A program made the position numbers and the translations under genes. Positions 564 to 49,952 of a stretch of DNA of 64,000 nucleotides are shown piece by piece (positions within the stretch are counted from its first letter, which is position 1; each line of letters opens with the position of its first letter). Under the pieces are notes generated by a model. The model was given only the letters and a program-made list of their open reading frames with translations, had not been told where the DNA came from and searched no databases. This DNA is from an uncultured bacterium (lineage in GTDB: Bacteria > Spirochaetota > B62-G9 > DRHN01), in NCBI GenBank assembly GCA_965603595.1, contig CBFDDP010000001.1, positions 17,751 to 81,750 on the forward strand. The letters run 5' to 3'.

Positions 564-768
564 ACATCTTCTCAAGCGTATGAAGCGAAGACGATACCTC
601 ACCTTGAGGGTCAGAAGCTTTATTGAAATGCTCAATCTCAATTGGCCTGGCTTTTTCATGGAACAGATCTCTCGGTAATGCCGTCAGTGATGATCAACCG
701 TCAGCGGTCAACCCCTATTATAGATACTTTGGATTTTTATACAAGTTTTTTACAAAACCTGCCCGGCT

Positions 769-1917: not shown

Positions 1918-1984
1918 ACAACCTATTTTTCGACAGAAACAAAGGTCTTATGTAGTGTTTTTAATGTGAGGACAAGAGAGCGGG

Positions 1985-3709: not shown

Positions 3710-3807
3710 CCGAAAAACTGTTTTAACTTTTCAGCATTCATGGCTAAATTCGGTACACCGCCTGATAGGGAGTAAACCAAGCTGCATGAACGAGCGGAGA
3801 ACTATAG

Positions 3808-13581: not shown

Positions 13582-16500
13582 TTAGAAATAGATCTCCATC
13601 TTGAGGCCAAGCTCGAAACCAAGGGACGTCAGCAGGTTTCCGCTGCTGTAGTCGGGGGTTACCTTCTCTTCAACACCAAACTGGAACCTGGAAAAGGCGG
13701 TGAATATAAGGCTGTCGGTGATTTCATACTCCGTTTCATGTTCCAGGGTCAGGCGCAGGGGGATATTACTGAATCCTTCCGACTGCTCCCTCTCAGTAAT
13801 GGTATAAACATTCTCAATCGTCAGAACCTCCAGATTCTTGATTGAACTTTTGAACTCCGGATCCGGTTTCACAAAGAGAAATCCCTTTTTCGGGAATACC
13901 TCCCAGAGATAACTCAGCCTGAATTCGTTTTCGATCGTATCCGATGGCGGTACGAGAGCTACACTGGAATCGCTATCGGGAACACCAGGAATGAGTGCAT
14001 AGTCCGAGTCACCTTTATGCTGCCTCGTTCTGGTATACTCGACCTGGTCATATATCTTCAGGCCCTGAAACTCGGTACGCAGGGAGTTGTACTCGGTTGT
14101 CAGGGAGAAGCTGTTATTCAGTACTTTGGTATCAAACTGCCTTTCACCCTCATAATCAAAGGTCATCACTATGTTGTTCTTGAAGTATTTCTCGGCATGG
14201 GAGAGGGGTACGTTGTACTGGATGGAGGCTGTCCAGCCCCTGCTCTGCCTGTATGATTCCCCCTCCCTGCGTGTTTCCCCGTTTATGCCAAGGGTAACCC
14301 AACCTGGTATAAACCAACGGTCATACCCAAAGGCCACATCGAGAATATAACTGTTGAAGAGGGAGTTCACAGAGTTACCTGATATTTCAGAGCTGCCCTT
14401 GTAAATGTTCACGGCATCGTAATCCTTATCCCTTCCCCCGGGATGCATATAGTAAAAGGGGGGCATGAACATATACCTGTAGCTCTCCAGATACATATCT
14501 CTCCGGGTGAGAGATTCCGATACAGTCTTATAGTCACCCCTGAACTCGCGGCGCATCAGGGGAGTGACCTCGATCCTATCGATTCCAAGAAAGTAAAAGG
14601 GAATGGCCATCTCGAAATCGTGATTGTACACCGTATCCCGGTCTGCTTCATCAAAGGAGAAGTTCTTCTGAGAGTAATCAGTATCAAAGATCAGGTTGAA
14701 TCCCACAATCTTCATGAGGGGTATACTGATGTCCAACCCGTATCCGTCGGTTGTGGAAGCAAGTGTGCCGTTTTCGATGGTCTCGCCCACAGGCGTGAAA
14801 AGTGTGCTCAGGCGGTTGATATATGCACTGCCCCAGCTCTCAGCTTCAGGAACAGAGAGTCCGGTGTACTGCTGGTTCCGTAATAAATAGGTTGCTATGA
14901 TGTTACTGTTCCAGCTGAAGGATAGATCAAACCGGTCCTGCTGGTCCACAACGGCATCCTGCTCCCGCGTGGGATCCAGTGATTGCGAGGGTATGGTCTC
15001 ATAGGTGTCAGTGTAGAGCCAGAAACGATTGAAGGTGTACGCCTGGGACAAACCGAAGGGAAAATCGACCTGTTCTGAGAAAAGCAGCGAATCGTCATAG
15101 GCGGTCTGGTCATAGTGCTGATAATCGGTGGGATTGAGATCTATCTCTTTGCTGTTCGTTACATATCTGTCATAGGAATGTCTGATAGAGGGTATGTATG
15201 CATTATCGAATGCGAGCTCCAGGGTATGGGACTGCTGTGTACGATAGTCATCGGTGCTCAAATCGCCGGGTAAATCCTCCTCGTTTCTAATGGTGGTGAT
15301 GTCCTCCCGGCTCAGGTACACCTCTGTACCGAGCACTTTCAACAGATCAATGTCCAGACCCGTATAGAGACGGTCGTTCCGCTCATCAGTACTGGTATAG
15401 AACTTCCCCTCCTGTCGTTCAAATCCAAGCAGCAGCGATGGATTGCTTATGAGGGGAAACTCTGCAACCGAGAGCACATCTCCCTTATAGCCGAAGGTCC
15501 CCTCAGTGATAAAGGCCGTGTCAAAATACCCTTCACTGTTTCGCACGAACCATTCATCGAGCCAGATTTCCAGGGGCTGAGTTACATCACCGCTGTTGGC
15601 ATAGAAACCGAACTGAATCTCGGCGAGCCTGTTAAAAATTCGGAGATCACCCGATTTCGTCATGTTGATAACATCCTGGCCATTCAACTCTACCGTATAG
15701 GGCGATTTCAGATGGACATCGATGCGATTCCATCCCTGTACGATCTGTGATCCCGGGATGACAGTACGAAGCTCCTCATTCTGGCTGCTCACGAACGAGA
15801 GTGTGAAGTCCAAATTGGACGGCACCGTCTCGGATTCCGGAAGGTAGAGAAACATGGAGTAGTCGCCGTAGAAAGAGATATCCATTGGAATGGCGAAACG
15901 GCGGGCGACCGCTGCTTCCTCTCCCTGATCGAGCTGCGTCATTGCAGTGGGGTCAAAATAGACCTTCAGCACCTTCTCGACGAGATTGTTTCGGCTGCGG
16001 TAGGAAGCGTCCCCGTGGAGCTCGTCGTAGAGACCCGGATAATCCTTAGACAGTGCATGGTCATCAACATCGGGGTTCTCGTCCACAGATACTTCGCTGA
16101 TGTTGAGATAATCCTTGGATTCGTTCACCAGGCTCGAACCCGAAAACCAGATCCTGTTGATGACGACCTTACCTGTTACATCCTGAGCAGGAGGCGGATT
16201 AACCGTTGTGACGGTCAGCCGGAGAGCTGCAGCGCTCTGAAATACCTCCGGTTTACTCTCGATCAGGGAGAGTATGTCCACCGATAGATACCTCCAGCCA
16301 CTATTCCCGGTTGAAAACTGTTGTATATAGTCGGTCGTGTCACCCCGTATCAGCACGCCTGTATCAGGGCCTGTATCGAGTATGCCGTTCTTGTTCAGGT
16401 CCTCCGAATCTATGCGGCCGTTACTCGATCCCTCCCTGTCAGTACCGATGACTGTTGGATTCCCGTTCCAGGGTGTGATTGGAAAACCGGCATCATTGAT

Positions 16501-28123: not shown

Positions 28124-29785
28124 TCAAACCTCAATGATAAAGGGTACTATAACCGGTGAACGGGAAACCTCTTTCCTGAAGAAACGCTTCAGCGCATTGA
28201 TCACCGCCGATTTCAGTTGATCCTGCTGCAGGTTACCTCTCTTCAGGTGCTGCCGTACCTCAGAAAAAACTATATCCTTTGCACTCTCCAGAACACTCTC
28301 CGCATCCTGCAGGCATATGAAACCCCTGGAGTAGATTTCAGGATGCATCACCCCATGATTGTTCATGGAAAGCGGAATGACGATGATGACGACACCTTCC
28401 TCTGCAAGGCGATGCCGGTCCCTAATCACCGCACTCCCGATATCACCGGTGTTCTTACCATCAGTGTATACGCTCCCCGTCTCCACCACACCCGTTGCAC
28501 GCACACCATCCTCATCCACGATAATCACATCACCGTTCTGAGCAATCAGTATGTTCTTTTCCTCGATGCCCATCTCCTTCGCCAGGTCTGCATGATGGAT
28601 CAAATGTTTGAACTCTCCATGAATGGGGATGAAGTAGCGCGGCTTGAGAATTGCCATGAGGAGTTTCAGCTCCTCCCGTGATGCATGCCCCGAGACATGC
28701 AGGTCCGCGAAGCCCTCGTAAAAGACATGTGCCCCCTTTCTGAAGAGGCTGTTCACCACCCGGGACACTGTTCTTTCATTTCCAGGGATAATCGATGCGG
28801 ATAGAATAACCGTATCTCCCTTCTCGATGGTGAGCTGCTTGTGCCTGCTGCCGGCGATACGCGACAGGCCGGACATGGGTTCGCCCTGGGAACCCGTTGT
28901 GAGGAGCAGCACACTGTTCCGTTTGTAGTTGTTTATCTTCTCCGGCGCCACAACGAGACCCTCATCGAACTCAAGATACCCCAGGTCCCTGGCCATGGTT
29001 ACATTCTTCTCCATGCTCCTACCCAGGATGGAAACACGCTTCCCCGCTTTTCTGCACACATCAAATATCTGCTGTATCCGGTGAATATTCGAGGCGAAGG
29101 TAGCGATGATGATCCTGCCGGTTGCACTGGTGATCGTGTCGAAGAAGCTGTTGTTCAGCTCACGCTCCGAGGGTGTGTAGCCCTTGTGCTCAGCGTTGGT
29201 GGAGTCGGAGAGTAGCAGAAGTACCCCTTTCTCACCAAACTCGGCGATCTTAAAAAAATCGAAGTGATGATCGTAGATGGGAGTGAAGTCGAACTTAAAA
29301 TCACCCGAATGCACTATAATACCGAAGGGAGTATGAAAAGCCACACCCACACCGTCTGCCACTGAGTGACAGACACGGAAGAACTCTGCAGTAATGGCAC
29401 CGAACCTCACACTCTCGCGCGGTTCGATCTCGATGAATTCGGGTTCATAACCCAGCGAGTATTCCTCGAGCCTGTTGCGTGCGAATCCAATGGTGAGTCT
29501 TGTTCCGTAGATGGGAACCCGAAGATCTTGGAGCAGATAGGGAAGAGCACCGATATGGTCTTCATGACCGTGGGTCAGAATAATTGCCTCGATCCTGTCA
29601 CGGTTTTGCTGCACATAGGTCAGGTCAGGGATGATGAAGTCTATACCCGGCAGGTCCCCATTGGGGAACATCATACCCGCATCAATGATGAGTATGGAAT
29701 CCTCATGTTCCACGAGCATCATGTTCTTACCGATTTCACCAAGGCCGCCAATCGGTATGATCCGAATGCCCCTACTATCCGACAT
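28124..29785 (-). CDS. rnj: ribonuclease J (metallo-beta-lactamase/beta-CASP)
   Basis: IIPIGGLGEIGKNM start and HGHEDHIGALPYL motif. ~555 aa, typical RNase J length. Confidence 0.85.
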   Translation of the reverse strand: MSDSRGIRIIPIGGLGEIGKNMMLVEHEDSILIIDAGMMFPNGDLPGIDFIIPDLTYVQQNRDRIEAIILTHGHEDHIGALPYLLQDLRVPIYGTRLTIGFARNRLEEYSLGYEPEFIEIEPRESVRFGAITAEFFRVCHSVADGVGVAFHTPFGIIVHSGDFKFDFTPIYDHHFDFFKIAEFGEKGVLLLLSDSTNAEHKGYTPSERELNNSFFDTITSATGRIIIATFASNIHRIQQIFDVCRKAGKRVSILGRSMEKNVTMARDLGYLEFDEGLVVAPEKINNYKRNSVLLLTTGSQGEPMSGLSRIAGSRHKQLTIEKGDTVILSASIIPGNERTVSRVVNSLFRKGAHVFYEGFADLHVSGHASREELKLLMAILKPRYFIPIHGEFKHLIHHADLAKEMGIEEKNILIAQNGDVIIVDEDGVRATGVVETGSVYTDGKNTGDIGSAVIRDRHRLAEEGVVIIVIPLSMNNHGVMHPEIYSRGFICLQDAESVLESAKDIVFSEVRQHLKRGNLQQDQLKSAVINALKRFFRKEVSRSPVIVPFIIEV

Positions 29786-33652: not shown

Positions 33653-33682
33653 AAAAAACCGGAACGCGTGGTTCCGGTTTTA
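33653..33682. terminator. bidirectional rho-independent terminator AAAAAACCGGAACgcgtgGTTCCGGTTTT
   Basis: Perfect 8-bp GC-rich stem flanked by an A-run and a T-run. Lies between the SOR gene stop and the mdh-paralogue start. Confidence 0.7.
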
Positions 33683-36697: not shown

Positions 36698-38557
36698 CTA
36701 TTCTTCCTCTTCCCAGATCATGACATCCTTCATTTGAGACATGTTAGCAGCTCGTGTTGCATCATCGCCTGCTAAATCCAGATATGCATATTCCACAGCC
36801 AAATCAGGATCTATCTTCTTTAATTTGTTATAAGTTTTTTTTGCAGATCCATAATTTTCTAGTTCGTGGTTTGCGCGAGTAACACAAAGCAATACCTTCG
36901 GATTTTTAGGCTGTATCCTGGTTGCTCGCTCATATAATTCGAGTGCCCTCTCCATTTCATCATTGAGATAGTAAATATTTCCAAGGTTCATTAATGCGGG
37001 CATATACTTACTATTCATGCTCAACGACTTGGTGAACTCCATCTCAGCCTTGTCATTCACTCCATATCGAGCATATAAAACGCCACGTTTATTGACAAGC
37101 TTTGCAGTTTCTCCACTTTTTGTTATATCATCCTCAATCTTTACCAGCTGTGAATATATTTCCCTATCGATATACTTTATTAATTCTGTCAAGTACACAC
37201 TCACCAGCGTATCACTGCTGGGAAGAGTCAAAGTTGCAATATCTCCAGGCAACCCCACAGGTTCATACAGGCTCCAGGAACTATGCATTGGATAGAATCC
37301 CTCTTTCTGTTTTAAAACGGCTTCTCTCCACTCCTGAGCCCCTGTCTGCCATGCTTTAAGAAATCCTCCACCGATTTCTGTTACTTCAACGGGTATCCAG
37401 ACCTTCTCATCCCTGAATATCAACTCATCCTGCCTTGAAAACCTCTTCCTTGCTTGTTCAGGATCCATGGCAACTGCAAAGGCCATAAAGATATGGCCAG
37501 GTATTGTAATAAATGATGTTTCAACTCCCACTGACTCAAGGAGAGCACTGTACAGAATAGAGAGATCATCACAGTCACCAGCCCTGTAGTCCAGAGTCTG
37601 CTTGGGGAACTGCAGGAAGTCGACTGCTTGTTTATTTGCCGAAAATTCTGCATACGGTGTTGTCGGGTCTATAACATAGCTCATACCGTATAACGATATC
37701 GCCTCGTGGAGAGCCATCGCCATAAGTAGATTCTTGTCCACGGCTTTGCTTCCCTTATCTTTGATCATCCCTGCGACATTTTTTGAAAACCTGAGCACAA
37801 CCGGATCCTTTGCCGTTACAAATGCCGCGGCTTTTCTGTCGTCATCCCAATTTATCGCATTTCTATCAAATATTCGTATTGTCTCACTGTATTTGCTTTC
37901 GTATACCGTCCCCTTATGGGTGTACTCGACAATTATTTCAGCAGCCACCTTGGTGCCTTCAGTAATCTCAAGAACCTTGTTGTTAAACAGGGCAGTCAAC
38001 TCTATCTCGGCCTCTTCGCCAGCTTCAAGTGTACCGGGTGTCTTGCACTCTTTTGGTATATCCATATACTGCCGCACAAATACAGTTACGTTTATATCCG
38101 TCGTTGGGATCTTTTCCCAGTTGTGAATAACAGCTATACCCAATGGATTTTCATCATAGTACTTGTAAAACACCGGAAATATATCGTAGAACTGTGCTTT
38201 TACTATCTCTAGCCCTTCACCTGTCGTAATAACCTCCTTTTCCTCGGCTGGCTTCGATTTCTGAAAATCCTCCTTCCTGGGTTTCTGAAGTTTTTCCCTC
38301 TCTGGTTCTTCAACACCTTCTTTCCCAGGCTTCACAAGTTGTTCTGTTTCCGTTTTTTGAGTTTCTTCTTGGCCAGGTTTTACAAGCTTTTCCTCTTTTC
38401 CTGGTTTTTCGAGCTCTTTATCTCCAGAAACCGGAGATTCATCTTTTCCAGGCTTTTCGAGCTTCTCTCCCCCTCCTCCAAAGAGACCATTTGTAACAAG
38501 AGCAAATGAAATTATCAAACAGAAGAAAATGGTAAAAAAATTGAATTTATATTTCAT
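36698..38557 (-). CDS. transglutaminase-like cysteine-protease-domain protein with N-terminal KPGKE tandem repeats and C-terminal TPR repeats
   Basis: Signal/anchor MKYKFNFFTIFFCLIISFALV. Repeats EKPGKDE/EKPGKEE/VKPGQEE/VKPGKEG/QKPRKED. Transglutaminase-like Cys/His (AGDCDDLSILYSALLESVG ... IPGHIFMAF). C-terminal TPR-like helices. The gene is ~40% GC versus ~52% in flanking DNA. Confidence 0.7.
   Translation of the reverse strand: MKYKFNFFTIFFCLIISFALVTNGLFGGGGEKLEKPGKDESPVSGDKELEKPGKEEKLVKPGQEETQKTETEQLVKPGKEGVEEPEREKLQKPRKEDFQKSKPAEEKEVITTGEGLEIVKAQFYDIFPVFYKYYDENPLGIAVIHNWEKIPTTDINVTVFVRQYMDIPKECKTPGTLEAGEEAEIELTALFNNKVLEITEGTKVAAEIIVEYTHKGTVYESKYSETIRIFDRNAINWDDDRKAAAFVTAKDPVVLRFSKNVAGMIKDKGSKAVDKNLLMAMALHEAISLYGMSYVIDPTTPYAEFSANKQAVDFLQFPKQTLDYRAGDCDDLSILYSALLESVGVETSFITIPGHIFMAFAVAMDPEQARKRFSRQDELIFRDEKVWIPVEVTEIGGGFLKAWQTGAQEWREAVLKQKEGFYPMHSSWSLYEPVGLPGDIATLTLPSSDTLVSVYLTELIKYIDREIYSQLVKIEDDITKSGETAKLVNKRGVLYARYGVNDKAEMEFTKSLSMNSKYMPALMNLGNIYYLNDEMERALELYERATRIQPKNPKVLLCVTRANHELENYGSAKKTYNKLKKIDPDLAVEYAYLDLAGDDATRAANMSQMKDVMIWEEEE
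38275..38480 (-). repeat. imperfect in-frame tandem DNA repeats (CCAGGNTTTNCNAGCT-type unit) encoding the KPGKE peptide repeats
   Basis: Four to five copies of the unit visible in the 5' part of the 36698..38557 gene. Confidence 0.5.
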
Positions 38558-38787: not shown

Positions 38788-39501
38788 ATGAAAAAATTTA
38801 TCATCATTACTGCTTTAATTTTGGGTGTCCTTTTTATATTTTCAGCTACCTCTGTTTTTGCTCAGTACGCATATTTTGGAGTGAAAGGAGGAATAAATTT
38901 AGCAAATGTTTGGGGTGAGGATACTGATCCAGATGGTGCTCTCTTTATTGGTTGGGATGACAAAAAAATAAAAATAGGCTTTGCAGCGGGGGGTTATTCA
39001 ACAATTGTACTAACAAATTGGTTTGCATTACAGCCAGAACTGCTTTTTACTATGCAGGGCACCTCATATGAATATTCGGAGGAATTACCAGGCTACTCTT
39101 TCTGGGTTAAAGAGACTTTAAAATTGGGTTATATTCAACTTCCAGTTCTGCTCAAATTTTACATTCCGATGGAAGGCAATGTAAAGATCAACGCTTTTGC
39201 TGGACCATATGTTGCCTATAACGTATATGCGAAAGCTAGAGTGCAGGTAGAGGAAACTGGCTTTGAGGATTATGATGAAATAGAAGATATAGAGGATGAT
39301 TGGGGATGGGGAGTCCGAAAATTTGATTATGGGGCTGTTGCTGGTGCAGGTGTTGACTTTATCATAAAAGGTAGGCAGCTCACTGTTGACGCGAGGTATA
39401 CCATAGGATTTGCAAATATCTTCCAAGATTTAACGGGATGGCCCGAAGATCCTGTTTTTAGAAATGGTACAATTTCAGTAATGGTTGGGATTGGATTTTA
39501 A
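38788..39501 (+). CDS. small outer-membrane beta-barrel protein (OmpA-like N-terminal-domain / porin_2-type)
   Basis: Signal peptide MKKFIIITALILGVLFIFSATSVFAQ. Alternating aromatic beta-strands. C-terminal F (..MVGIGF). Low GC, preceded by a very AT-rich 230-bp promoter region. Confidence 0.65.
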   Translation: MKKFIIITALILGVLFIFSATSVFAQYAYFGVKGGINLANVWGEDTDPDGALFIGWDDKKIKIGFAAGGYSTIVLTNWFALQPELLFTMQGTSYEYSEELPGYSFWVKETLKLGYIQLPVLLKFYIPMEGNVKINAFAGPYVAYNVYAKARVQVEETGFEDYDEIEDIEDDWGWGVRKFDYGAVAGAGVDFIIKGRQLTVDARYTIGFANIFQDLTGWPEDPVFRNGTISVMVGIGF

Positions 39502-39722
39502 ACTTACAACAATCATGCAAAATCCAGGATCATCGGATTTATGAGTATTCTTCAAATATGACAGAAACCTCTTCGAAGAAGCTTCAAAAATCATATTTTC
39601 GATCATACACGATTTCCATACAGAACCAGTACAAACGGCCATAAAGACAGGGGCTGTCATCTCCTATCAGTCCTTTGGCGACCTGTTCTATTAAAAACAT
39701 CATCGTGGGGAGAGTAAAAACA

Positions 39723-39932
39723 ATGAAGGAGAAGAGATCTGATAAAGATCGAAGGGGTGTTAATGACCGGCGGAATGGGGAGGACGGACGTTCGGGTCTT
39801 GACAGAAGGGTAGAAAACGTTGCTGTCGAGCTCGATCTACGCTGTTCTTCCAATCGAAGATCGGGTAGCGAAAGAAGAACGAATCGGGAAAGGCGTATAC
39901 AGACGGACAGGAGGAAGGTGAAAACTGTCTAA
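39723..39932 (+). CDS. small (69 aa) highly basic protein with repeated DRR/ERR motifs (hypothetical)
   Basis: RBS GGGGAGAG 8 nt upstream of the ATG at 39723. Sequence MKEKRSDKDRRGVNDRRNGEDGRSGLDRRVEN ... SNRRSGSERRTNRERRIQTDRRKV. The ORF-track form (85 aa, from 39675) has no RBS. Confidence 0.35.
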   Translation: MKEKRSDKDRRGVNDRRNGEDGRSGLDRRVENVAVELDLRCSSNRRSGSERRTNRERRIQTDRRKVKTV

Positions 39933-40221
39933 TCCTTATTCTATGTTCATTGGATTGAACCTACCCGACTCTACCTTGAACACGAACTCATCCCCTCTGT
40001 AGCATGAGTAAACTATTGAAAGAAATAGTAAATACAGGTATGAATTGATTTTCACCGAAATGGAAACAAGGTCAAGGCAAAAATCAAAGAAGATTTTTTT
40101 CCGAGAATTGCTGTCAGAGAAGGCTGCCAGATATGTACACATCGGTACAACAGTGACACTGCATCCTATATCACAAAGTCCGGCATACCATGAGATAACA
40201 ATGTCTACTTTTCTGCACAAG

Positions 40222-41652
40222 TTAGAACTTGTATTCGAAACGTATCTCTAGAAAATCCTTATCATCGAACTGGCCGAAGTAGGTCTCGGCGTCACCGCCG
40301 TACTCCAGGTACATGACCGACATGACCATGTCATCACGAAGAGAGAACTCGATCTCAGGCCAGATGATATAATCTCCCTTTTCGATCGTATACGCCACGG
40401 ACACGACCGGCCTTATCTTATCCCGATGATAGCTGTCACGCAGCGCCAGTATCAGTATGTCATCGGTATACTTACCTTTCGAATTGTACTCCGTGTCGCC
40501 TGGGCCAATCTTATCGCTGTGCATGATATAGTTTCCCCTGAGTTGAAACTCGAAGTTGAGACTGCTTATGCCCAGGTCCCGATCAAAGCCGAAGAGAAGT
40601 ACCAGGCGATGGTTGTGCACGAGTGGGTCATCGCCGGCCCAGTCCTCCGTGAAGTAATACCCCGCCTCCAGCCAGGTGTTGAAACCCCACAGCACAGTGC
40701 CCAGATCACCGCCCAGAAAATGCACACGGTCCCAGGAGATATAGGCTTTGTTTTCCAGCATGAGCCGCTGATAATTGATGGAGGGTTCCCTGAAATAGCC
40801 GTAGTAGTAGAGCATACCCAGGTCGAGTCGACCAGGTGCCTTGCTCCATCGAGCCGCGAATTGCCCGTATTCCAAGCTATTTGTGATAGGATAAATGATG
40901 TCATCCGCTCCATTGGGCAATGTGTCTATTAATTGCTCGAGATTGTAGGGGACCCAAGGACCTTCTAGCGGAAAGGTATCGGGCGTAAACACCGGTTCAT
41001 AGACCAGCTCGAGCAAAGAACCGCCCGTGAACTTCCAATTGATCTTGAATATGGCCTCTGCTTCCTTCCGGTCCAGGTAGTCCTGGTTTACAAAATCCGT
41101 GTAGTCCATGGGAGTGAGCAGGTCTATAACATGGGTCTCATCCCCCGGTCCCCACACCACCTTCATGTACCCGATCTCCAGGTCAAAGCGTTTGTAGTAA
41201 AGCCGCGCATAGGCCTCATCAATGATATTGTCCAGGTCATTAAAAAGGATGTTCTTGGTAAAATCCAGGGCGAGAAAGAGATCGGAGTTTTTGTTCTGAT
41301 AGAGGAAGTCCAGCGTAACCCAGGGATATACACTGACTGGGCTGTCCTTGAATGAGTCTTTATTCGCATAGTAACGGGTATCGAACCTGAATCTGCCGCC
41401 TATGTTGAGCTTCTGTTCTTTATCTGACCCTGTATCGAATGAGGACAACCCCTCTCCTTCATCCTCAGCGATGATCTCGTCGATGTCGCCAAAATTGGAG
41501 AAATCATCGCCCCCCGCACCCTCATCAAACTCACCCTCACTATCCCCTGTGCCGGTTTCCCCTTCAGCGAAATCCTCCTGCGTCATTCCCGTTGACACGA
41601 AGAACAGGAGCAAGAAGAATGCAATGGCGGCCACTGTTGGTATCCTCTTCAT
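40222..41652 (-). CDS. predicted outer-membrane beta-barrel protein with N-terminal acidic low-complexity region
   Basis: Signal peptide MKRIPTVAAIAFFLLLFFVSTGMTQ. D/E/G-rich stretch (res ~26-75). Y/W/F-rich body ending ..RFEYKF. Confidence 0.6.
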   Translation of the reverse strand: MKRIPTVAAIAFFLLLFFVSTGMTQEDFAEGETGTGDSEGEFDEGAGGDDFSNFGDIDEIIAEDEGEGLSSFDTGSDKEQKLNIGGRFRFDTRYYANKDSFKDSPVSVYPWVTLDFLYQNKNSDLFLALDFTKNILFNDLDNIIDEAYARLYYKRFDLEIGYMKVVWGPGDETHVIDLLTPMDYTDFVNQDYLDRKEAEAIFKINWKFTGGSLLELVYEPVFTPDTFPLEGPWVPYNLEQLIDTLPNGADDIIYPITNSLEYGQFAARWSKAPGRLDLGMLYYYGYFREPSINYQRLMLENKAYISWDRVHFLGGDLGTVLWGFNTWLEAGYYFTEDWAGDDPLVHNHRLVLLFGFDRDLGISSLNFEFQLRGNYIMHSDKIGPGDTEYNSKGKYTDDILILALRDSYHRDKIRPVVSVAYTIEKGDYIIWPEIEFSLRDDMVMSVMYLEYGGDAETYFGQFDDKDFLEIRFEYKF

Positions 41653-41689
41653 GATAAGACCCTCGCCGAATTTTTTTAGTGCGCCCCTG

Positions 41690-42487
41690 TTACGGCCTTC
41701 CCGTTTTCAGAAACTGTGTGGTAAAAAACCCTTCATTCACAGCCTCATCATATGCAAGCTTCTTGAACTCGAGTGAAGTTCTGTGCTCAGTCTTCATATT
41801 CTTCATCTCCGAGTAGAGCGCAGTCCAGTAGCCCTGTACCTGCTTGAGGCTCTTCGACACACCCACCTTCTCGAGCTCACCCCTCTTATTATACAGCTCA
41901 ACCTTGATAGGCACCCATATATCCCTGGGGACCCAGCGCAGCAGGTATGCGTAGTCGGAATCGGAAGGATCTTTTGCCCACATCTTTATGACATAACAGT
42001 CATACCCATCGAGTTTCTCCTCCCGTAAAACCTCGTAGTGATACTTCTCCACCTTGCGTCTCTTCATGTCATCATAAGAAAAATCTGTACCCATAAAGGA
42101 CTTGCCCCCCTCCTGGGCAGCAATCCTCCTCACCTTCTTCAGTGCCGGAAGATAAATCCACTGATCGTCGTCGCGGTCACCGTACTCGACCTGCAGGAAA
42201 CGTGTACCCTTGATCGATGCCGGTGCGTGAAACACGACCACGTTCTTCTCCAGCTCGCCGTCATACTTGTACGACCACTGCTCCACGTATCGCGTGCTTA
42301 TGGTTCCGTCTTTATCGATAAGGTCCATCTTGACCAGAGAGTGCATGGTCCGCTGCGTTTCGCTGTTGTAGACCTCCCAGGCAATCTCTTCAGCAGTCAG
42401 GGCATAGAGGCTTTGAAGGCCAACGGAAGACTGCAAACAAAATAGCAGCGCTGATGTAATAAGTGTGACAAGGATTACCCGCCTCAT
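41690..42487 (-). CDS. LolA-like outer-membrane lipoprotein-sorting family protein (periplasmic partner frequently encoded with MMPL exporters)
   Basis: Signal peptide. ~265 aa. Located immediately downstream of the MMPL gene. Assignment is by architecture and context rather than a sharp motif. Confidence 0.5.
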   Translation of the reverse strand: MRRVILVTLITSALLFCLQSSVGLQSLYALTAEEIAWEVYNSETQRTMHSLVKMDLIDKDGTISTRYVEQWSYKYDGELEKNVVVFHAPASIKGTRFLQVEYGDRDDDQWIYLPALKKVRRIAAQEGGKSFMGTDFSYDDMKRRKVEKYHYEVLREEKLDGYDCYVIKMWAKDPSDSDYAYLLRWVPRDIWVPIKVELYNKRGELEKVGVSKSLKQVQGYWTALYSEMKNMKTEHRTSLEFKKLAYDEAVNEGFFTTQFLKTGRP

Positions 42488-42538
42488 ATCCTTTCCTCCA
42501 AACTCCCAAAATATTTCGCTCTAAAGTTCAAACCCCTT

Positions 42539-45184
42539 CTATTTCAATAAAAACTTTGGCTTTAGCATGTTCAGCAATACAGGAAGTACGGTCATTGCGG
42601 CAAGGGACGTGGTTATCATGGTGAGTGCAATGAGAAGCCCTGCCGTGGCAATGGGTATGAAATTCGAGAACATGAGTACCGCGAATCCCGCACCAACGGT
42701 GATCGCATTGATGATAATCGCCTTGCCCGTTGTGAAGAGTGTGTTCTTCGTGACCCTGCTCAGGTTATCCGTATTTTTCCGCTCACGATAGTAGCGCGAG
42801 AGAAAGTGAATCGAGTAGTCTATGCCGATGCCGATTGCAACAGAGGCGACCAGTGAGGTAACGATATCGAGTAGATACCCGGCAAATCCCATAACACCGA
42901 ATATGATGATGATCGCAACGGACAGCGGAATGATCCCGTATAGCCCGGCGACTGCCGATCTGAATGATACCGCGATGATGATGAATACGACCACCAGTGC
43001 GACGAATATACTCATGATCTGTGAGCGAACTATAAGATCGGTAAATGCCGCCTCGATATCCGCATGACCCGCGATCTCCACTTCATAACCCTCTGGAAAC
43101 CGCTCATCCACATACCGCATAATGTCCCTGGTTATCTCTTTGGTGAAGTGATTGCCCGTTGTCGTGAGTTGCACATGCATACGCGCCTGCGAGGGTTCGA
43201 GTGCATCATCGGTAAAATCGTCCAGGTTGCCCGAGAAGAGAAGCAGATACTGGGTTATGAGGTTCTGGAGCTCCTCTCTGCTCGAGACCGGGTATTTTTC
43301 AGGATCATAGGGGATTTCATTGTACGCCTCCCCTTCAATATTGAACTCCCGCATGAACAGGCTGATATACTCGTCTGCAGGCAGGTTCATGTCACGGGCG
43401 TCAAGGTACACATCGTTCATGAGTGCGGCAATTTCACTACGGGAAAAATTCACATCGTACTTCACGGGAGGAAAGGTGGAGCCTCCTGCCGGGATCTCAT
43501 CTTCAACCTGATCGGCAAACTCTTCCGTGAAGAAACTCTCGAAGGCTGAATCATCATCGCTTCCCACATCCTCAGAAGCCATGAACTCCTCGGTGAAGAA
43601 GCTTCCCTCCACTCCTCCGTTATCTGCATGTGCGTACTCCTCTTCCGGTTCCGTATAGTTCATGACCTTGTTCATGCGCTTGATATAGTCGGTAAACGAA
43701 ATAACCTTACCCACCTGTACGTATTCGGCCTGCAGGTACAGGCTCAAATCATCCATTGCCTTGAGTATCTCAGGGTTGGTCAGGTCACCACGCTTCTTTC
43801 CCCGTACGACGATGCTGAAATCCTTGGTACCCCCGAAATTCTCACGCAGAAAATCATCGGCATCCCGTATCTCGGTACCCCTGCGAAAGTACTCCACCAT
43901 TGAGTTGTCAATAACGATCCTGGACATGCCGTACACCGAAATCGGCAAAATAATCGCCAAACTCAGAATCACTCCCATCCCGCGTCTTGTCACAATGAAG
44001 TTGTAGAATTTCAAAATGGCAAGGAGCAGGCCCCCCGACTGTTTCCTCTGTGAATGTGCGGCAAGCCGTTCGAAACCCCTTCTCCTTGACAGCAGGAGTG
44101 CAGGGATAAAGGTCAGTGCAACGATCAGTGCAATGAGCACGCCGATGGCGGTAAATATTCCGAAATGGCGCATGGGAAGCACCGAACTCACGGAGAGTGA
44201 TCCAAACCCGGCAATGGTGGTCAGTCCTGCCAGCAATACCGGTTTCCCGACCTTGCGCACTGTGTCGAATACGATCTCCCTGTTTTCATCCGTGCCCGAA
44301 ACCCTGCGCAAATTATCATAGTAGTGACTTATGATGTGAATGCCGTAGGCACTTCCTACTGCAATGAGCAGTACGGGGATCGCCGTGGCCAGCATGGTGA
44401 GTGAGAGACCGATCAATGCCATGAGCCCCACTGTCCAGATCGTACTGATGGACACGGTAATAATGGGGAGCAGCACACCCCCGGTGTTCCTGAAGGAGAG
44501 ATAGAGAAAGATAAACACTACGATGAGTACAAAGGGGATGAGGTTACGGAGGTCGCCCCGTACACTCGTCCCCATGAGCGCAGTCATCACGGGATTCCCG
44601 GCCACATGTGCCCGCAATCCGAACTCCCCACTGTCCTTCACAATCTCCTTTATCTCATAGTAGGCCCGCTCCCAGACCTCCACGTCGAGGTCTAATTCCA
44701 GGGTTGCGATGATCTGAGCTGACTGGAAATCATCGGAGAAGAGAAGTTTCTGGTACGCGTCCCATGAGATGAGTCTTTCTTTCAGTTCCTGGATTTCATC
44801 CTCAGTACCGCCGAATCCGTCCACAATGGGTGTAACCTTCATGCCCTCTTCTGTTCCGGAGATATAGTCTGAATTGGTAAGGGAGTTTACCTCCTGCACA
44901 TATTCAAGGTCTTCAATCTCACCGGTAATCCCATCGAGGTAGGCAATCGCCTCTTTCGTGAAGATGGTTCCATGCTCAGCATGAAAGGCAATAGACACGT
45001 GGTCCTGGCTACCAAAGGTCTCCTCAACCTCATCAAAGGCCAGTCTCGACGGGTACCGCTCAGGTACGAATTTGGTGATGTCGTTATCAATCCTCGTTCG
45101 AGGAAGCTGGAGGCTGAAAAAGAAGGTGCCGGCGAGGATAACGGATATGATGATCCAGGGGTGCCGAAACAGTTTTTGGAGCAT
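42539..45184 (-). CDS. MMPL/RND-superfamily exporter (two 6-TM bundles, each preceded by a large periplasmic loop)
   Basis: 881 aa. N-terminal TM, large soluble domain, TM cluster (res ~200-370), second large soluble domain, second TM cluster (res ~700-870). This is the typical MMPL topology. Confidence 0.8.
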   Translation of the reverse strand: MLQKLFRHPWIIISVILAGTFFFSLQLPRTRIDNDITKFVPERYPSRLAFDEVEETFGSQDHVSIAFHAEHGTIFTKEAIAYLDGITGEIEDLEYVQEVNSLTNSDYISGTEEGMKVTPIVDGFGGTEDEIQELKERLISWDAYQKLLFSDDFQSAQIIATLELDLDVEVWERAYYEIKEIVKDSGEFGLRAHVAGNPVMTALMGTSVRGDLRNLIPFVLIVVFIFLYLSFRNTGGVLLPIITVSISTIWTVGLMALIGLSLTMLATAIPVLLIAVGSAYGIHIISHYYDNLRRVSGTDENREIVFDTVRKVGKPVLLAGLTTIAGFGSLSVSSVLPMRHFGIFTAIGVLIALIVALTFIPALLLSRRRGFERLAAHSQRKQSGGLLLAILKFYNFIVTRRGMGVILSLAIILPISVYGMSRIVIDNSMVEYFRRGTEIRDADDFLRENFGGTKDFSIVVRGKKRGDLTNPEILKAMDDLSLYLQAEYVQVGKVISFTDYIKRMNKVMNYTEPEEEYAHADNGGVEGSFFTEEFMASEDVGSDDDSAFESFFTEEFADQVEDEIPAGGSTFPPVKYDVNFSRSEIAALMNDVYLDARDMNLPADEYISLFMREFNIEGEAYNEIPYDPEKYPVSSREELQNLITQYLLLFSGNLDDFTDDALEPSQARMHVQLTTTGNHFTKEITRDIMRYVDERFPEGYEVEIAGHADIEAAFTDLIVRSQIMSIFVALVVVFIIIAVSFRSAVAGLYGIIPLSVAIIIIFGVMGFAGYLLDIVTSLVASVAIGIGIDYSIHFLSRYYRERKNTDNLSRVTKNTLFTTGKAIIINAITVGAGFAVLMFSNFIPIATAGLLIALTMITTSLAAMTVLPVLLNMLKPKFLLK

Positions 45185-45207
45185 ATGAGTAACTCCCCTG
45201 TGCAGGC

Positions 45208-45837
45208 CTACAGTGACCGGACCATGAGCTCGAGCATGTGCTCGAGCAGCTCCCGGGGCTCATACTGACCACGCTGATTGATGATATCGCCCAAGACCGA
45301 CAGCTGCTTCATGAAGGACGTCACGATATTCGCATACAGGATGGCCATCTTCTCGGGTTCTATGTCGTCCCGTATGGTGCCGTCCTCCTTTCCTTCCTGG
45401 AGTACCTCAATGAGCATGTCGATGATTTCATCGATGATGCGCATACACTGGGCGGCCATGTTGCTCTCTTCCACCTGCGAGGTAATTTTATAATCGATGT
45501 TACTGGCGAATTCAAAGTATTCGGCATAGTCTGTATAGTATTGTGGGATAATCCCGACAATGCGTTTGATCTTCTCAATTCCCGAACCGCCATCCCGAAT
45601 AGCCCCTTCCATCATCCCCTTCAGCATCTTGAAGGACTCGAACATGATTGCATGGGCAAGATCTTCCTTGTTTTTAAAGTAGATGTAGAGGGTACCCTTG
45701 CTCAGTTCGGCGACGCGTGCAATGTCATCCATGGTGGTGTCGTTAAAGCCCTTGGTGAAGAAGACTCCCTTTGCAGCCTCGAGAATCTCTCCGTACCGCT
45801 GCTCGCGCTCACGCTGCCGCCGCTCTTCCGTTCCCAT
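45208..45837 (-). CDS. TetR/AcrR family transcriptional regulator
   Basis: N-terminal HTH (ILEAAKGVFFTKGFNDTTMDDIARVAELSKGTLYIYFKNKEDL). Confidence 0.88.
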   Translation of the reverse strand: MGTEERRQREREQRYGEILEAAKGVFFTKGFNDTTMDDIARVAELSKGTLYIYFKNKEDLAHAIMFESFKMLKGMMEGAIRDGGSGIEKIKRIVGIIPQYYTDYAEYFEFASNIDYKITSQVEESNMAAQCMRIIDEIIDMLIEVLQEGKEDGTIRDDIEPEKMAILYANIVTSFMKQLSVLGDIINQRGQYEPRELLEHMLELMVRSL

Positions 45838-45852
45838 ATTGCTAACCCCGGG

Positions 45853-45881
45853 TTATATTATGACTGCAAGTCATAATATAA
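45853..45881. promoter_or_regulatory. perfect 13-bp inverted repeat TTATATTATGACT-gca-AGTCATAATATAA: candidate TetR operator
   Basis: Read directly ~15 bp upstream of the tetR start codon, the classic position for an autoregulatory TetR operator. Confidence 0.6.
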
Positions 45882-46045
45882 CTATAATTCATTATAAAAA
45901 TATGTCAAGCAATTATGAAAAACAGAAAAGAGGACAGCTCACTTTTCGAAAAAAGGTGACAGCTCACGTAATTCAATCATGAGAAGGGATATTACCCACC
46001 CCTATTGAAGAGGAACAAAGGGGGATTGCCGATATGACCATTGGT

Positions 46046-46708
46046 TTATGGTATGGATGTTCGATCCTGCTGCGTACTCTGTTCGGCCCGCTTGGCAGCG
46101 AGCATGTCCTTCACCTTCATGAGGCGGGTCAAATTTGCCCGTTCCATCTCTGCGAGCTTCATGGTGATATACTTGATGGTGTCGATTATGTTGGGGACGA
46201 TTATATACTCGAGCGCGTTGACCCGCCTGCGGGTCTTCTCGATCTCTTCGGCAAGGAGAATGGAAGCCTTCTCGAGCTCCGCGAGCTTGAGAAGGGTCTG
46301 CAGCATCTCACCGTACTTTCGAACGCTCCGGTCCACGAGCACCGAGCTCCGGGCATCGCCGTAATCGAAGGGGTCACCGATGATCTCCACCTCGAATTCA
46401 GGGACCTTGAGGTTCATGATCTGCTTGGTCCTGGACTTCACATCCGTGTGCGCACCTGGCATGGAGAAGAGGCTTTCTATACTGGCACCGCCCACAACAC
46501 CCTCGGCAAGGGAGAAGCTCTGATACACGGCCTGAATATCCCTGTCAGCCTGTATACGGAGTTCCTTTGTGTCCTCAATAATTTCCAGGAAGTTCCGTAC
46601 GAGCTCGTCCTGCTTGTCCTTGAGAAGCTTGTGGCCCTTCTGGGCAAGCACGAGCCGCTTCTTCAACCGCTGCAGCTCCTGCCTCGTGGGGTTGATAGCA
46701 AGAATCAT
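46046..46708 (-). CDS. atpD: V/A-type ATP synthase subunit D. Start MILAINPTRQ at 46708 with RBS GAGAGGG; the ORF-track 5' extension to 46894 is probably spurious.
   Basis: Subunit D N-terminus and coiled-coil. Last gene of the operon. Confidence 0.8.
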   Translation of the reverse strand: MILAINPTRQELQRLKKRLVLAQKGHKLLKDKQDELVRNFLEIIEDTKELRIQADRDIQAVYQSFSLAEGVVGGASIESLFSMPGAHTDVKSRTKQIMNLKVPEFEVEIIGDPFDYGDARSSVLVDRSVRKYGEMLQTLLKLAELEKASILLAEEIEKTRRRVNALEYIIVPNIIDTIKYITMKLAEMERANLTRLMKVKDMLAAKRAEQSTQQDRTSIP

Positions 46709-46790
46709 GAAACCCTCTCTGATATCGGGGATACATAACGTAACTTTTATAAGTACGGTGTCCCCGTAATTAAGTGAGCTGTCACCATAA

Positions 46791-48179
46791 TTACTGGGCC
46801 GCTTTTTTGAAGCGGGGTAGATACTTATCCAGAAACTCGGGACGAATACGCTTGAGCTCCACCGTGGGCAGCACGGAGAGAAGCTCCCACCCAAGGTTCA
46901 ATGTGAATTCAATGTCCCGGTCTTCCATCTCCCCCTGCGCAATGTACTTGCGCTCGAAATTCTCTGCAAAATTGTAGAATATGCGGTCGATATCCGACAA
47001 CGCAGCCTCGCCGAGTATAACTTCGAGCTCCCGTGCCTCGAGACCCCGCGCATAGGCGGCAAAGAGCTGGTTAAACACATCTGCGTGGTCCTCACGGGTT
47101 TTTCCCTCTCCGATTCCCTTGTCCTTGAGTCTGGACAGGGACTGCAGTACGTCCACCGGCGGGTAGATGCCGCGGCGGTGCAGTGCCCTTGAAAACACGA
47201 TCTGTCCCTCTGTGATATAGCCAGTCAAGTCTGGGATGGGATGGGTCTTGTCGTCCTCCGGCATGGTCAGCACCGGGATCTGGGTGATGGACCCGGGTTT
47301 GCCCTTGATACGCCCCGCCCTCTCATATATGCTTGCCAGGTCGGTGTACAGGTAGCCGGGGTATCCCCGTCGTCCCGGGACCTCCTGGCGTGCCGCCGAC
47401 ACCTCGCGCAGTGCCTCGCAGTAGTTGGTCATGTCCGTGAGGATGACGAGCACGTGCATGTCTTTCTCGAATGCCAGATACTCCGCAGCCGTGAGAGCAA
47501 GCCGCGGGGTTGCTAACCGCTCGACGGCCGGGTCGTCAGCAAGGTTGATGAAAAGCACTGTACGCTCTATGGCCCCGGTGCGCTGAAAGTCATTTCTGAA
47601 AAACTGTGCCTCTTCGAAGGTGATGCCCATGGCCGCAAACACCACGGCAAACTCCCCCTCGGTTCCAAGCACCTTCGCCTGACGCGCAATCTGCGCAGCC
47701 ATCCGGGCATGGGGCAGGCCGGTCACCGAAAAGATGGGAAGCTTCTGCCCGCGCACCAGAGTGTTGAGACCGTCAATGGTCGAAAATCCGGTCTGTATGA
47801 ACTCGGAAGGATAGTCGCGCGCATAGGGGTTGATGGGCGAGGAGTTGATGTCGAGCCTTTTCTCGGGAATGATCCTGGGGCCATCGTCGATGGGGCGCCC
47901 CTGTCCGTCAAACACCCTGCCGAGTATGTCGTCGGACACGTCGAGCTCCATACCCTTACCCTTGAAGCGCACCTTGGTGTTGAATACATTGACCCCCACC
48001 ACGCCTTCAAAGAGCTGAATGAGCGCCAGGTCCCTGTTTACCTCCAGCACGCGCCCGTTCCTGATCTCACCACTCGGCAGTTCGATCTCAACGAGCTCCT
48101 CATACTTGACGCCCTCCACCTCCTCGACAAGCATGAGCGGACCGGCAACTTCTCTGATGGTACTGTACTCTTTTATCAT
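46791..48179 (-). CDS. atpB: V/A-type ATP synthase subunit B
   Basis: 462 aa, regulatory B-subunit signature throughout. Confidence 0.9.
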
Positions 48180-49952
48180 TTACGCCTCCTGGGCCACCTT
48201 CTCCTTGAGTCCCTTGTAACCCTTCTGGATCTCATCCTTAATCTTGTCGATATCCCCCACCTTGTCCTCGTGGATGAACTTCGCGCGTGCAATGGTTTCC
48301 CTTACGGGCAGAGCTGCAATATCATGAATATTCACACCCTGCTCCAGTGCGTCCTTGCCGAGCTGATGGAAGAACTTAATGAGCTCCATCAACTTCGACA
48401 TCTTCTGAAAGGAAGTGTAGGTATCGATCTCGTGAAATGCGTTCTGATGGAGAAAATCCTCGCGTATGGAGCGCGCCGTTTCCATGATGAGGCGGTTGTC
48501 CGATGAGAGAGCGTCGAGACCCACAAGGCGCACGATCTCCTCGAGCTCCGCTTCCTGCTGCAGAATGGACATGGCATCGTCGATGGATTGCACCCACTCC
48601 TCACCATACTGTTTCAGGAAAAAGTCCCGCAGGTTTGTGTTGTAGAGCGAGTAGCTTGTAAGCCAGCTGATAGCCGGGAAGTGCCTCCTGTATGCGAGCT
48701 TGTCCTCCAGGCTCCAGAACACCCTTACCACACGCAGTGTGGCCTGAACGACCGGGTCCGACAGGTCGCCGCCCGGGGGCGATACCGCACCAATCGCGCT
48801 CAGGGCTCCAATCCGCTCGTCAGAGCCGAGACACACCACCTTGCCTGCACGCTCGTAGAACTCCGCGATACGTGTACCCAGATAGGCCGGATACCCCTCC
48901 TCACCGGGCATCTCCTCGAGACGTCCTGACATTTCACGCATGGCCTCGGCCCACCGTGACGTGGAATCAGCCATGAGCGCCACCGAGTAGCCCATGTCCC
49001 GAAAGTACTCGGCGATGGTGATACCCGTGTACACCGAAGCCTCGCGAGCCGCCACCGGCATGTTTGAGGTATTGGCAATGAGTATGGTCCGCTTCATGAG
49101 CGGCTCCCCTGTATGGGGGTCGATGAGTTCGGGAAACTCGAGAAGCACATCGGTCATCTCATTGCCGCGCTCGCCGCATCCCACGTACACGATGATCTGT
49201 GCATCGGCATACTTGGCAAGCTGATGCTGCACCACCGTCTTCCCGCTGCCGAAGGGCCCCGGAACACAGGCCGTACCCCCCTTGCTGATGGGGAAGAAGG
49301 CGTCGATGACCCGCTGGCCCGTAGAGAGGGGCTCATCGGGGTCGAGCTTTCGTTTGTAGGGACGAGCAAGCCTGACCGGCCATTTCTGCATCATGGTAAT
49401 ATCCACGTCGCCCTTTTCAGTACTGATGACTGCGACCTTGTCGGTGATGTTAAACTCCCCGGCATCTATCTTCTTCACCCTACCGCTCACCCCGGGGGGA
49501 ACCATGATGCGGTGCTTGACAAGAATGGTCTCATCCACCGTACCGAGTATGTCCCCCTCAGCTACAACATCACCGGACTTCACGCCGGGATCGAATTTCC
49601 ACTTCTTTTCCCTGTTCAGGCCGGGGATGTCGATGCCCCTGGTAATAAAGTCACCCGCCTGCTCTCTGATAATGTCGAGCGGTCGCTGCACGCCGTCGTA
49701 TATGGATTCTATGAGCCCGGGACCCAGCTCGACTGAAAGAGGCACACCGGTAGGATATACCGGCTCGCCCACACCGAGCCCGCCCGTCTCCTCATAGACC
49801 TGGATGGAAGCCTCGTCGCGTCGCATCTCGATGACCTCACCCATGAGGCGGTGTTCACTGACCCGTACCACGTCATAGATCTTTGCACTGCGTATATTGG
49901 ATGCAATGACAAGCGGTCCGGCTACCTTGACGATCTTGCCAACTTCCTCCAT
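48180..49952 (-). CDS. atpA: V/A-type ATP synthase catalytic subunit A
   Basis: Walker A GPFGSGKT. 590 aa with the non-homologous insert typical of A subunits. Confidence 0.92.

Follow-up and report, generated by a model that had tools for sequence, protein, structure and literature searches.

A putative TetR-repressed trans-envelope export module with paired acidic-aromatic repeats in an uncultured spirochaete

What would a repressor, an inner-membrane pump, a periplasmic carrier and an outer-membrane barrel, encoded one after the other on the same strand, move across the envelope of a spirochaete, and in which direction? The question is raised by an operon within a 64-kb stretch of contig CBFDDP010000001.1 (hereafter the window) from an uncultured member of the Spirochaetota. 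The reading favoured here, to which a probability of roughly 60% is given, is that the operon encodes a TetR-repressed trans-envelope export module of the MMPL(HAE3)-LolA3-DUF1302 family, which would carry a hydrophobic or lipid-like molecule outward. This reading is built on sequence comparison and structure models, and the alternatives that propose a housekeeping, an uptake or an iron-related function are weighed below as the evidence that bears on them is presented.

Four genes and a proposed route across the envelope

The four co-oriented genes described in the initial annotation are all present as open reading frames (ORFs) on the minus strand, and their identities and order are upheld by Pfam matches and fold comparison. 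In the order of transcription, with lengths in amino acids (aa), they are:

45208-45837, minus strand: tetR, 209 aa (TetR_N PF00440, E=2.4e-16)
42539-45184, minus strand: MMPL/HAE3-type RND pump, 881 aa (PF03176, E=2.3e-61)
41690-42487, minus strand: LolA-like carrier, 265 aa (PF17131, E=1.4e-62)
40222-41652, minus strand: outer-membrane barrel, 476 aa (predicted 18-strand, distant DUF1302 relative, C-terminal Phe invariant)

The successive intergenic gaps measure only 23, 51 and 37 nt, and terminator-like matches inside the operon are at chance level (6 against 5.0 expected). A search of positions 39400-46200 with Rfam returned no RNA element.

In the proposed mechanism, a TetR dimer would bind a palindrome lying over the -10 hexamer and the transcription start, thus repressing tetR itself together with the three downstream genes, until a lipid-like ligand frees it from this operator. 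A ligand of this kind is proposed because the regulator is closest to the acyl-CoA-sensing FadR-type TetRs. The proton-driven MMPL pump would draw its cargo, an amphiphilic or lipidic molecule, out of the inner membrane and pass it to the soluble LolA-fold carrier in the periplasm. The carrier would then dock on the DUF1302-like barrel, and the cargo would be inserted or released at the outer membrane. More speculatively, repeats found on a loop of the pump and on a tail of the barrel could tether the carrier, or tether both machines to each other. A conditionally exported hydrophobic molecule is favoured over bulk outer-membrane biogenesis because the module appears to be repressor-controlled here.

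The profile matches of the pump identify it as a probable inner-membrane member of the RND superfamily, of MMPL/HAE3 type, with a helix bundle that resembles a sterol-sensing domain. Indeed, PF03176 scores 208 bits, PF12349 (sterol-sensing domain) is matched at E=2.3e-11, and a Patched match is also obtained. The top NCBIfam match is TIGR00921 (HAE3; E=1.6e-84), whose 284 bits stay under the curated cut-off of 352, and ACR_tran reaches 18.6 bits against a cut-off of 28. The likeness to HpnN and MmpL systems put forward in the initial annotation amounts to analogy, since the scores fall far below the cut-offs both for the HpnN models (TIGR03480, 120.6 bits versus 751.85; NF052374, 79.3 versus 1100) and for those of actinobacterial MmpL, or HAE2 (TIGR00833, 208.8 bits versus 874.7; NF052608, 23.8 versus 1400). 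The solved relatives, namely MmpL4, HpnN, Dispatched and NPC1, are all distant. The GSAYGIH motif in transmembrane helix 4 (TM4) and D789-Y790 of the GxG(I/V)DY motif in TM10 are invariant or nearly so across 67 orthologs. By analogy with MmpL3, this conservation fits a working proton relay, and the pump is likely to be active.

The carrier is matched by PF17131 at 211 bits against a cut-off of 30. This family is now named TP_0789-like and corresponds to the 'LolA3' type. PF07044 (DUF1329) covers residues 55-142 only, aligned to profile positions 103-208 of 368, at 41 bits. These two are the only Pfam models among the listed matches, which include no LolA family model and no NCBIfam model. Among solved structures, the best sequence match is 9TP6 (E=3.4e-42), followed by 3BK5 and 4Z48. 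The AlphaFold2 model, which has a predicted local distance difference test (pLDDT) score of 87.5, retrieves the same entries in Foldseek, led by 9TP6, the LolA3 of Porphyromonas gingivalis, with TM-scores of 0.79/0.87. The LolA-type fold anticipated for this protein is thus borne out by its predicted structure. LppX and LprG are weak structural matches (Foldseek ranks 39-47). A candidate lipobox at Cys17 was considered and rejected, since this cysteine is not conserved and the orthologs display a type-I cleavage site (AxA, then (I/L)(T/D)G). For the same two reasons, the carrier is predicted to be a soluble periplasmic protein. A C-terminal motif, F(T/S)xxFLxTGRP (window 41690-41730), is nearly invariant in 30 aligned carrier orthologs and is a candidate docking element.

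The AlphaFold2 model of the barrel (pLDDT 82.9) is confident from residue ~80 onward, while residues 20-77 fall below a pLDDT of 50. This agrees with the earlier description of an outer-membrane barrel preceded by a D/E/G-rich N-terminal tail, which is predicted to be disordered. The 18-strand barrel resembles substrate-specific channels such as OccD, OccAB, the benzoate porin BenP and chitoporin. Pfam DUF1302 is matched by 13 of 50 barrel homologs, and the protein itself appears to be a distant DUF1302 relative. A 2026 paper independently describes DUF1302 as an 18-strand barrel, closest to AlgE and to the Occ channels, and its complex with DUF1329 is predicted by AlphaFold-Multimer with an interface score (ipTM) of 0.84 (PMC13499233). 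Homologs of the window barrel are found in Spirochaetota metagenomes and genomes, the best genome match among those listed having 38% identity, so that none of these matches comes from a close species representative of the source organism. Counting one representative for each cluster at 50% identity, the barrel-family profile retrieves 689 clusters with a threshold of E<=1e-30, a number that rises to 6955 with E<=1e-3.

The putative operator and its regulator

The case for repression centres on three overlapping elements upstream of tetR:

45881-45908, minus strand: sigma-70-type promoter, TTGACA (45908-45903), 16-nt spacer, TATAGT (45886-45881), 11 of 12 positions matching
45852-45882: perfect 31-bp palindrome, GTTATATTATGACT-tgc-AGTCATAATATAAC, putative TetR operator
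45861-45873: conserved 13-bp operator core TGACTtgcAGTCA, pattern TGACY-N3-RGTCA

The TTGACA-16-TATAGT arrangement is the best promoter match across positions 39500-46200. The palindrome consists of two 14-nt arms (45852-45865 and 45869-45882), 100% complementary and separated by 3 nt, and it is the longest perfect short-spacer inverted repeat of the whole window. None of 60 first-order Markov simulations gave arms of 14 nt (mean maximum 9.5, largest 13). The palindrome had been described as 29 bp long. It is indeed real, perfect and operator-like, but it spans 31 bp (14+3+14), and its conserved part is restricted to the 13-bp core. It shares the last 2 nt of the promoter match, within the -10 hexamer TATAGT, and ends 15 nt from the tetR ATG. 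Because it overlaps the -10 hexamer and the transcription start, binding at this site would repress the operon.

Eight distinct loci of relatives have the core ahead of their tetR ortholog (L001, L003 with its duplicate L004, L009, L011, L014, L016, L026 and L082, where such numbers denote individual loci), and L009 and L082 have it twice each. Across 1.09 Mb of related loci, it occurs 12 times, and 11 of these occurrences lie within ~110 bp upstream of an orthologous tetR. A -10-like hexamer stands just 5′ of the core, at the same placement, in the orthologous loci. This phylogenetic footprint is the strongest available evidence that the palindrome is the operator to which, as we infer, TetR binds. 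More distant TetRs encoded at the same position (L006-L008) are associated with different palindromes. Elsewhere in the window, no further full half-site was found at up to two mismatches. A second exact core match, TGACCGTGGGTCA (29565-29577), lies inside the RNase J gene (28124-29785) and is probably due to chance, 0.38 matches being expected per window. As this is the only other match, a regulon within the window was rejected.

The best solved relatives of the regulator, 3WHB and 1VI0, match it equally well (E=1.3e-10, residues 9-161), and both were named fatty acid metabolism regulator proteins by their depositors. The NCBIfam FadR model NF053878 scores 59.7 bits against a cut-off of 200, and the protein stays under every NCBIfam cut-off. 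It therefore appears closest to the FadR/YsiA-type, acyl-CoA-responsive branch, a relationship of resemblance only, in which acyl-CoA binding is putative.

Relatives of the cassette and rival functions

When genomes were scanned with the barrel alignment, 80 loci were obtained, 76 of which have enough upstream sequence to judge gene order and 65 of which are evaluable for TetR. Pump, carrier and barrel follow each other in the same order and on the same strand in ~72 of the 76. The expectation that all four genes are conserved together thus holds for this trio but not for the regulator, since tetR is adjacent in just 19 of 65 loci, none of which belongs to Treponema or Sphaerochaeta. For this reason, the trio is the conserved core, while the repressor is a lineage-specific addition. 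The loci belong mostly to Spirochaetota (Marispirochaeta, Sediminispirochaeta, Oceanispirochaeta, Sphaerochaeta and many Treponema, among them the cultured T. socranskii, T. berlinense and Treponema sp. JC4, which carry the trio as in the window). Outside this phylum, the pump-carrier-barrel cassette, with repeats on both membrane proteins, is present in Orenia metallireducens, a diderm Firmicute of the Halanaerobiales (L017). The trio plus TetR is present in Hypnocyclicus thermotrophus (Fusobacteriota; L086), again with both repeats, and on two further contigs. These occurrences point either to old inheritance among non-proteobacterial diderms or to horizontal transfer.

The architecture of the module is not new, since it has already been described in Bacteroidota, and Proteobacteria have a version with four components. 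P. gingivalis and, as paralogous operons, Prevotella intermedia possess the same four gene types in the same order as the window. In P. gingivalis, PG1181 (TetR), PG1180 (MMPL), PG1179 (LolA3/PGN0947) and PG1178 ('porin') form one autoregulated transcription unit, and PG1181 is induced 84-fold by nitric oxide stress (PMC11018363, citing Boutrin et al. 2016). Consistent with membership of this type, the window encodes a PF17131/LolA3 carrier with an MMPL pump immediately upstream and a DUF1302-type barrel immediately downstream, and the closest solved structure to its carrier is the P. gingivalis protein. Comparison with the P. macacae ortholog (L090) and a P. gingivalis fragment (L089) gives E-values of 1e-28 to 3e-32 for the pump, ~1e-50 for the carrier and 6e-31 for the barrel profile, while TetR homology to the Porphyromonas regulator is confined to the helix-turn-helix region (4e-7). 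There are also clear differences. Pump identity is only ~23%, and the Bacteroidota pump is ~80 aa shorter and lacks the acidic-aromatic insertion, just as the barrel lacks the acidic tail. The Bacteroidota operons contain two extra ABC exporter genes, to which P. macacae adds a methyltransferase and a 136-aa membrane protein.

Iron limitation induces the P. gingivalis unit by a factor of 13 to 136 (PMC10434189), the unit is up-regulated in a hemH mutant (PMC13096392), and the homologous operons of Porphyromonas and Prevotella rank among the genes most induced by iron or haem limitation (PMC10434189, PMC13096392). Induction by nitric oxide stress and by shortage of iron or haem is known only for P. 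gingivalis and P. intermedia (PMC11018363, PMC10434189). It could then be proposed that the module answers iron or haem stress by exporting a lipophilic metallophore or a molecule related to haem, much as MmpL4 and MmpL5 export siderophores in mycobacteria. When solved structures are searched by sequence, the pump indeed finds its best match in MmpL4 (E=4e-13), but this match is limited to the transmembrane bundle. Moreover, the additional ABC exporter and methyltransferase genes of the Bacteroidota are absent here, the TetR resembles regulators of fatty-acid type rather than iron regulators, and no iron-related gene adjoins the operon. An iron- or haem-related role for the spirochaetal operon is accordingly judged very improbable.

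In Proteobacteria, AmeABCD of Castellaniella defragrans and the DUF1302-DUF1329-BNR(COG4447)-RND cassettes, such as Shewanella Sama_1588-1591 and Pseudomonas putida PP_0765/0766 with PP_2018/2019, likewise combine an HAE3-type pump, a LolA-superfamily protein and a DUF1302-type 18-strand barrel. The window differs from them in several respects. Its carrier is a 265-aa protein with a single PF17131 domain, as opposed to a DUF1329 protein of ~450 aa, and lacks a full-length DUF1329 match. Its barrel has 476 aa and falls under the Pfam DUF1302 threshold, against ~600 aa in AmeABCD-type cassettes, and its regulator is a TetR instead of a LuxR or AraC protein. No BNR/Ycf48-like (COG4447) component was found in the window, where the gaps measure 23-51 nt, or in the called-gene tables of its relatives. 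Among the 80 loci, the spacing of pump, carrier and barrel leaves little room for a BNR gene in most, although the gaps of 0.3-0.7 kb in some Treponema loci were not examined.

These proteobacterial relatives also bring in the opposite direction of transport. In an uptake or assimilation route for hydrophobic nutrients (fatty esters, hydrocarbons or terpenes), the barrel would be the entry channel and the LolA-like protein would ferry the nutrient toward the inner membrane. The resemblance of the barrel to the 18-strand substrate channels would fit such a role, and a FadR-like TetR would suit the control of lipid nutrients. However, characterised RND-superfamily pumps move their substrates outward, and neither beta-oxidation genes nor other genes of catabolism lie beside the operon, be it here or in L001, L003 and L005. 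When DUF1302/DUF1329 and BNR/RND genes are mutated in P. putida, fitness falls on Tween 20 and on butyl stearate (bioRxiv 10.1101/2020.07.04.188060). The four genes of the proteobacterial cassettes are cofit, and DUF1329/DUF1302 genes occur within aromatic and steroid catabolic clusters (bioRxiv 10.1101/072470). Deletion of ameABCD, on the other hand, decreases monoterpene tolerance and increases the net influx of Nile Red, a phenotype that indicates efflux (PMC6394551). Altogether, uptake is considered an improbable function for the module, and export is preferred.

A third possibility is raised by the distribution of the trio, which nearly all of the sampled Spirochaetota possess and which comes without a repressor of its own in Treponema and Sphaerochaeta. 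The trio could provide a housekeeping route that constitutively supplies the outer membrane with an endogenous envelope lipid or with lipoproteins, and which in spirochaetes would be an alternative to Lol or Lpt. The LolA fold of the carrier goes in this direction, as do the high abundance of its Treponema pallidum homolog TP0789 (PMC5015957) and the export of cell-wall components proposed for the proteobacterial relatives by Price et al. (bioRxiv 10.1101/072470). Against it stand the TetR repressor found before the operon here and at 18 other loci, and the strong inducibility of the P. gingivalis unit under iron limitation mentioned above. The carrier shares the unclosed beta-barrel fold of LolA and LolB, but the donor of the Lol pathway (LolCDE-LolA-LolB) is the LolCDE ABC transporter and its acceptor is LolB, while the proposed donor here is an RND pump and the acceptor an 18-strand barrel. 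The cassette contains no lolCDE or lolB gene. LolA3 has neither the LolA arginine nor the LolB leucine and binds LolB only very weakly (PMC13103446), and Flavobacterium johnsoniae devoid of any LolA/LolB homolog is viable and still exposes its surface lipoproteins (PMC11885536). Export of lipoproteins, one of the options offered in the initial annotation, is therefore unsupported for a carrier that matches no LolA model among those listed and whose closest solved relative, LolA3, has so little affinity for LolB. A constitutive housekeeping route as a whole seems unlikely, though less so than uptake or an iron-related role.

T. pallidum deserves separate mention, as PF17131 takes its name from TP0789 and the adjacently numbered TP0790 is an RND-type transporter (PMC8407342). 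TP0790 has been modelled as an AcrB ortholog whose partners are the MacA-like adaptor TP0965 and the TolC-like factors TP0966-0969 (PMC8407342). By analogy with the window, TP0790 may instead work with the LolA-like TP0789 and a DUF1302-like barrel, which, if true, bears on lipid transport to the outer membrane in spirochaetes.

The remaining known systems offer functional parallels of variable depth. The cassette encodes no adaptor and no TolC-like outer-membrane factor, as would be expected of the AcrAB-TolC (HAE1) type, and the partners of its pump are a LolA-fold protein and an 18-strand, monomer-type barrel. In the mycobacterial MmpL7-LppX system, which exports phthiocerol dimycocerosates (PDIM), in LprG-Rv1410c and in HpnN systems, an RND/MMPL lipid pump and a LolA-fold carrier move hydrophobic cargo outward. 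None of these is orthologous to the window genes by NCBIfam score (MMPL, 209 bits versus 875; HpnN, 121 versus 752), the mycobacterial carriers are lipoproteins whereas the window carrier is predicted to be soluble, and neither the mycobacterial MmpL nor the HpnN systems are known to have a dedicated beta-barrel. By the tests run on these sequences, the module does not appear to belong to the Lol, HpnN, actinobacterial MmpL or AcrAB-TolC systems.

Several points weigh against an export module under TetR control. Binding of TetR to the palindrome is something that we infer from sequence, and the absence of an adjacent TetR in 46 of 65 loci means that this regulation is not intrinsic to the module. 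The barrel has no Pfam match of its own and misses the DUF1302 threshold. Deletion of lolA3 in F. johnsoniae leaves gliding motility and type IX (amylase) secretion unaffected (PMC11885536), and the P. putida fitness data are compatible with the assimilation of fatty esters as well as with export (bioRxiv 10.1101/2020.07.04.188060).

The interest of the export module lies in its wide distribution, which includes host-associated treponemes, and in the fact that a homologous unit is among the most stress-induced in P. gingivalis. The spirochaetal version provides three handles on its function: a defined operator core with a FadR-like TetR, the ligand of which should give a clue to the cargo; confident structural models of the carrier and the barrel; and co-varying disordered repeats, which hint at how the components of the two membranes come together.

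Paired repeats and the surroundings of the operon

The repeats in question occupy one segment of the pump and one of the barrel:

43475-43642, minus strand: acidic-aromatic insertion of low complexity, periplasmic loop 2 of the pump (about residues 515-570; GSFFTEEF ... ESFFTEEF)
41413-41577, minus strand: disordered acidic-aromatic N-terminal tail of the barrel (about residues 26-80)

The insertion sits between the hydrophobic segments at about residues 397-420 and 723-741 of the pump, and the topology of RND proteins and beta-barrels places both segments in the periplasm. Most pump orthologs carry the insertion in the form of DFG, DWG, SFF or SFSSFG repeats, and examples from other loci are DDWGDSGDDWGDS, DFGADDFADFGSDFG and (GDESFSSF)x7. 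In almost every ortholog from spirochaetes, fusobacteria and Orenia, the barrel tail between the signal peptide and strand 1 is made up of successive repeats, typically DFGDDFGSDFG, DDWGSDDWG, DSFFGSFDEG or DDFSSFG. Such segments are rare in the window, where 3 of the 85 ORFs of at least 120 aa contain one, namely the pump, the barrel and a marginal third. This third ORF (13582-18909, minus strand, 1775 aa) passes the filter with a segment that apparently belongs to a folded region.

The flavour of the repeat tends to co-vary between the pump and the barrel of one locus, as judged from their sequences. Over 19 clade representatives, the sharing of aromatic 3-mers is 0.24 within a locus and 0.11 across loci (permutation p=1.5e-4). 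Both segments are missing together in L011, L014 and Porphyromonas, and the twin repeats are confined to the spirochaete/fusobacterial/Halanaerobiales branch, being absent from the Bacteroidota branch. In one clade (L030, L042, L049 and L064), the barrel tail is present and the proximal pump has no insertion. L042 has tandem MMPL genes (334-3198 and 3236-6037) upstream of its carrier and barrel, with DFDFG repeats matching the barrel tail only in the first. A tandem second MMPL gene may thus explain the clade whose proximal pump lacks the insertion.

Recent gene conversion was considered as a source of this co-variation and appears unlikely. The longest DNA substrings shared between the tail- and insertion-coding regions measure 8-14 nt, while comparisons across loci give a mean of 8.1 (95th percentile 11, maximum 16), so that sharing is mostly near the cross-locus background, six loci lying above its 95th percentile. 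No DNA tandem repeats underlying the protein repeats were found in the window.

It is conceivable, albeit tentatively, that the repeats represent a shared short linear motif acting as a multivalent, FG-repeat-like tether, which would recruit the carrier at both the donor and the acceptor ends or link the pump to the barrel. If so, this would be a way to organise periplasmic lipid hand-off of which no description was found. Three observations count against a common function of this kind. The tail and the insertion of the window are alike in composition and have zero exact aromatic 3-mers in common. The correlation of Trp fraction drops from rho 0.83 over 41 loci to 0.28, which is not significant, over 18 clade representatives, so that the Trp/Phe flavour correlation is only suggestive and the 3-mer permutation test is the stronger evidence. 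Lastly, the carriers are not generally basic (median isoelectric point 6.4), and an electrostatic pull of a basic carrier onto the acidic tails is therefore unsupported. Irrespective of their role, the paired acidic-aromatic repeat tails are a new element of this operon, no earlier description having been found.

Directly upstream of the operon, on the minus strand, lie the genes for the D, B and A subunits of a V-type ATPase (46046-49952 and beyond), whose synteny with the tetR operon is retained in L001 and L003/L004. The interval from ntpD to the tetR promoter showed no terminator-like site, so that read-through into the tetR operon is possible. Downstream, a 720-bp gap contains an 85-aa ORF (39675-39932, plus strand) rich in (D/E/N)RR repeats (DKDRRGVNDRRNGEDGRSGLDRR...SERRTNRERRIQTDRRK), which has no Pfam match and is a candidate gene only. 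Convergent with the operon, a gene at 38788-39501 (plus strand) encodes a small outer-membrane beta-barrel protein of 237 aa (PF13568 OMP_b-brl_2, E=7e-25), and this gene is not kept beside the operon in the relatives examined. At 36698-38557 (minus strand) lies the gene for a 619-aa protein that has a run of (L)EKPGKE-like repeats at its N-terminus, TPR repeats at its C-terminus and a weak transglutaminase-like match. Further away, an intergenic palindrome with 11-nt arms (33655-33681, AAAACCGGAAC-gcgtg-GTTCCGGTTTT), with A and T runs on either side, resembles an ordinary intrinsic terminator that works in both directions.

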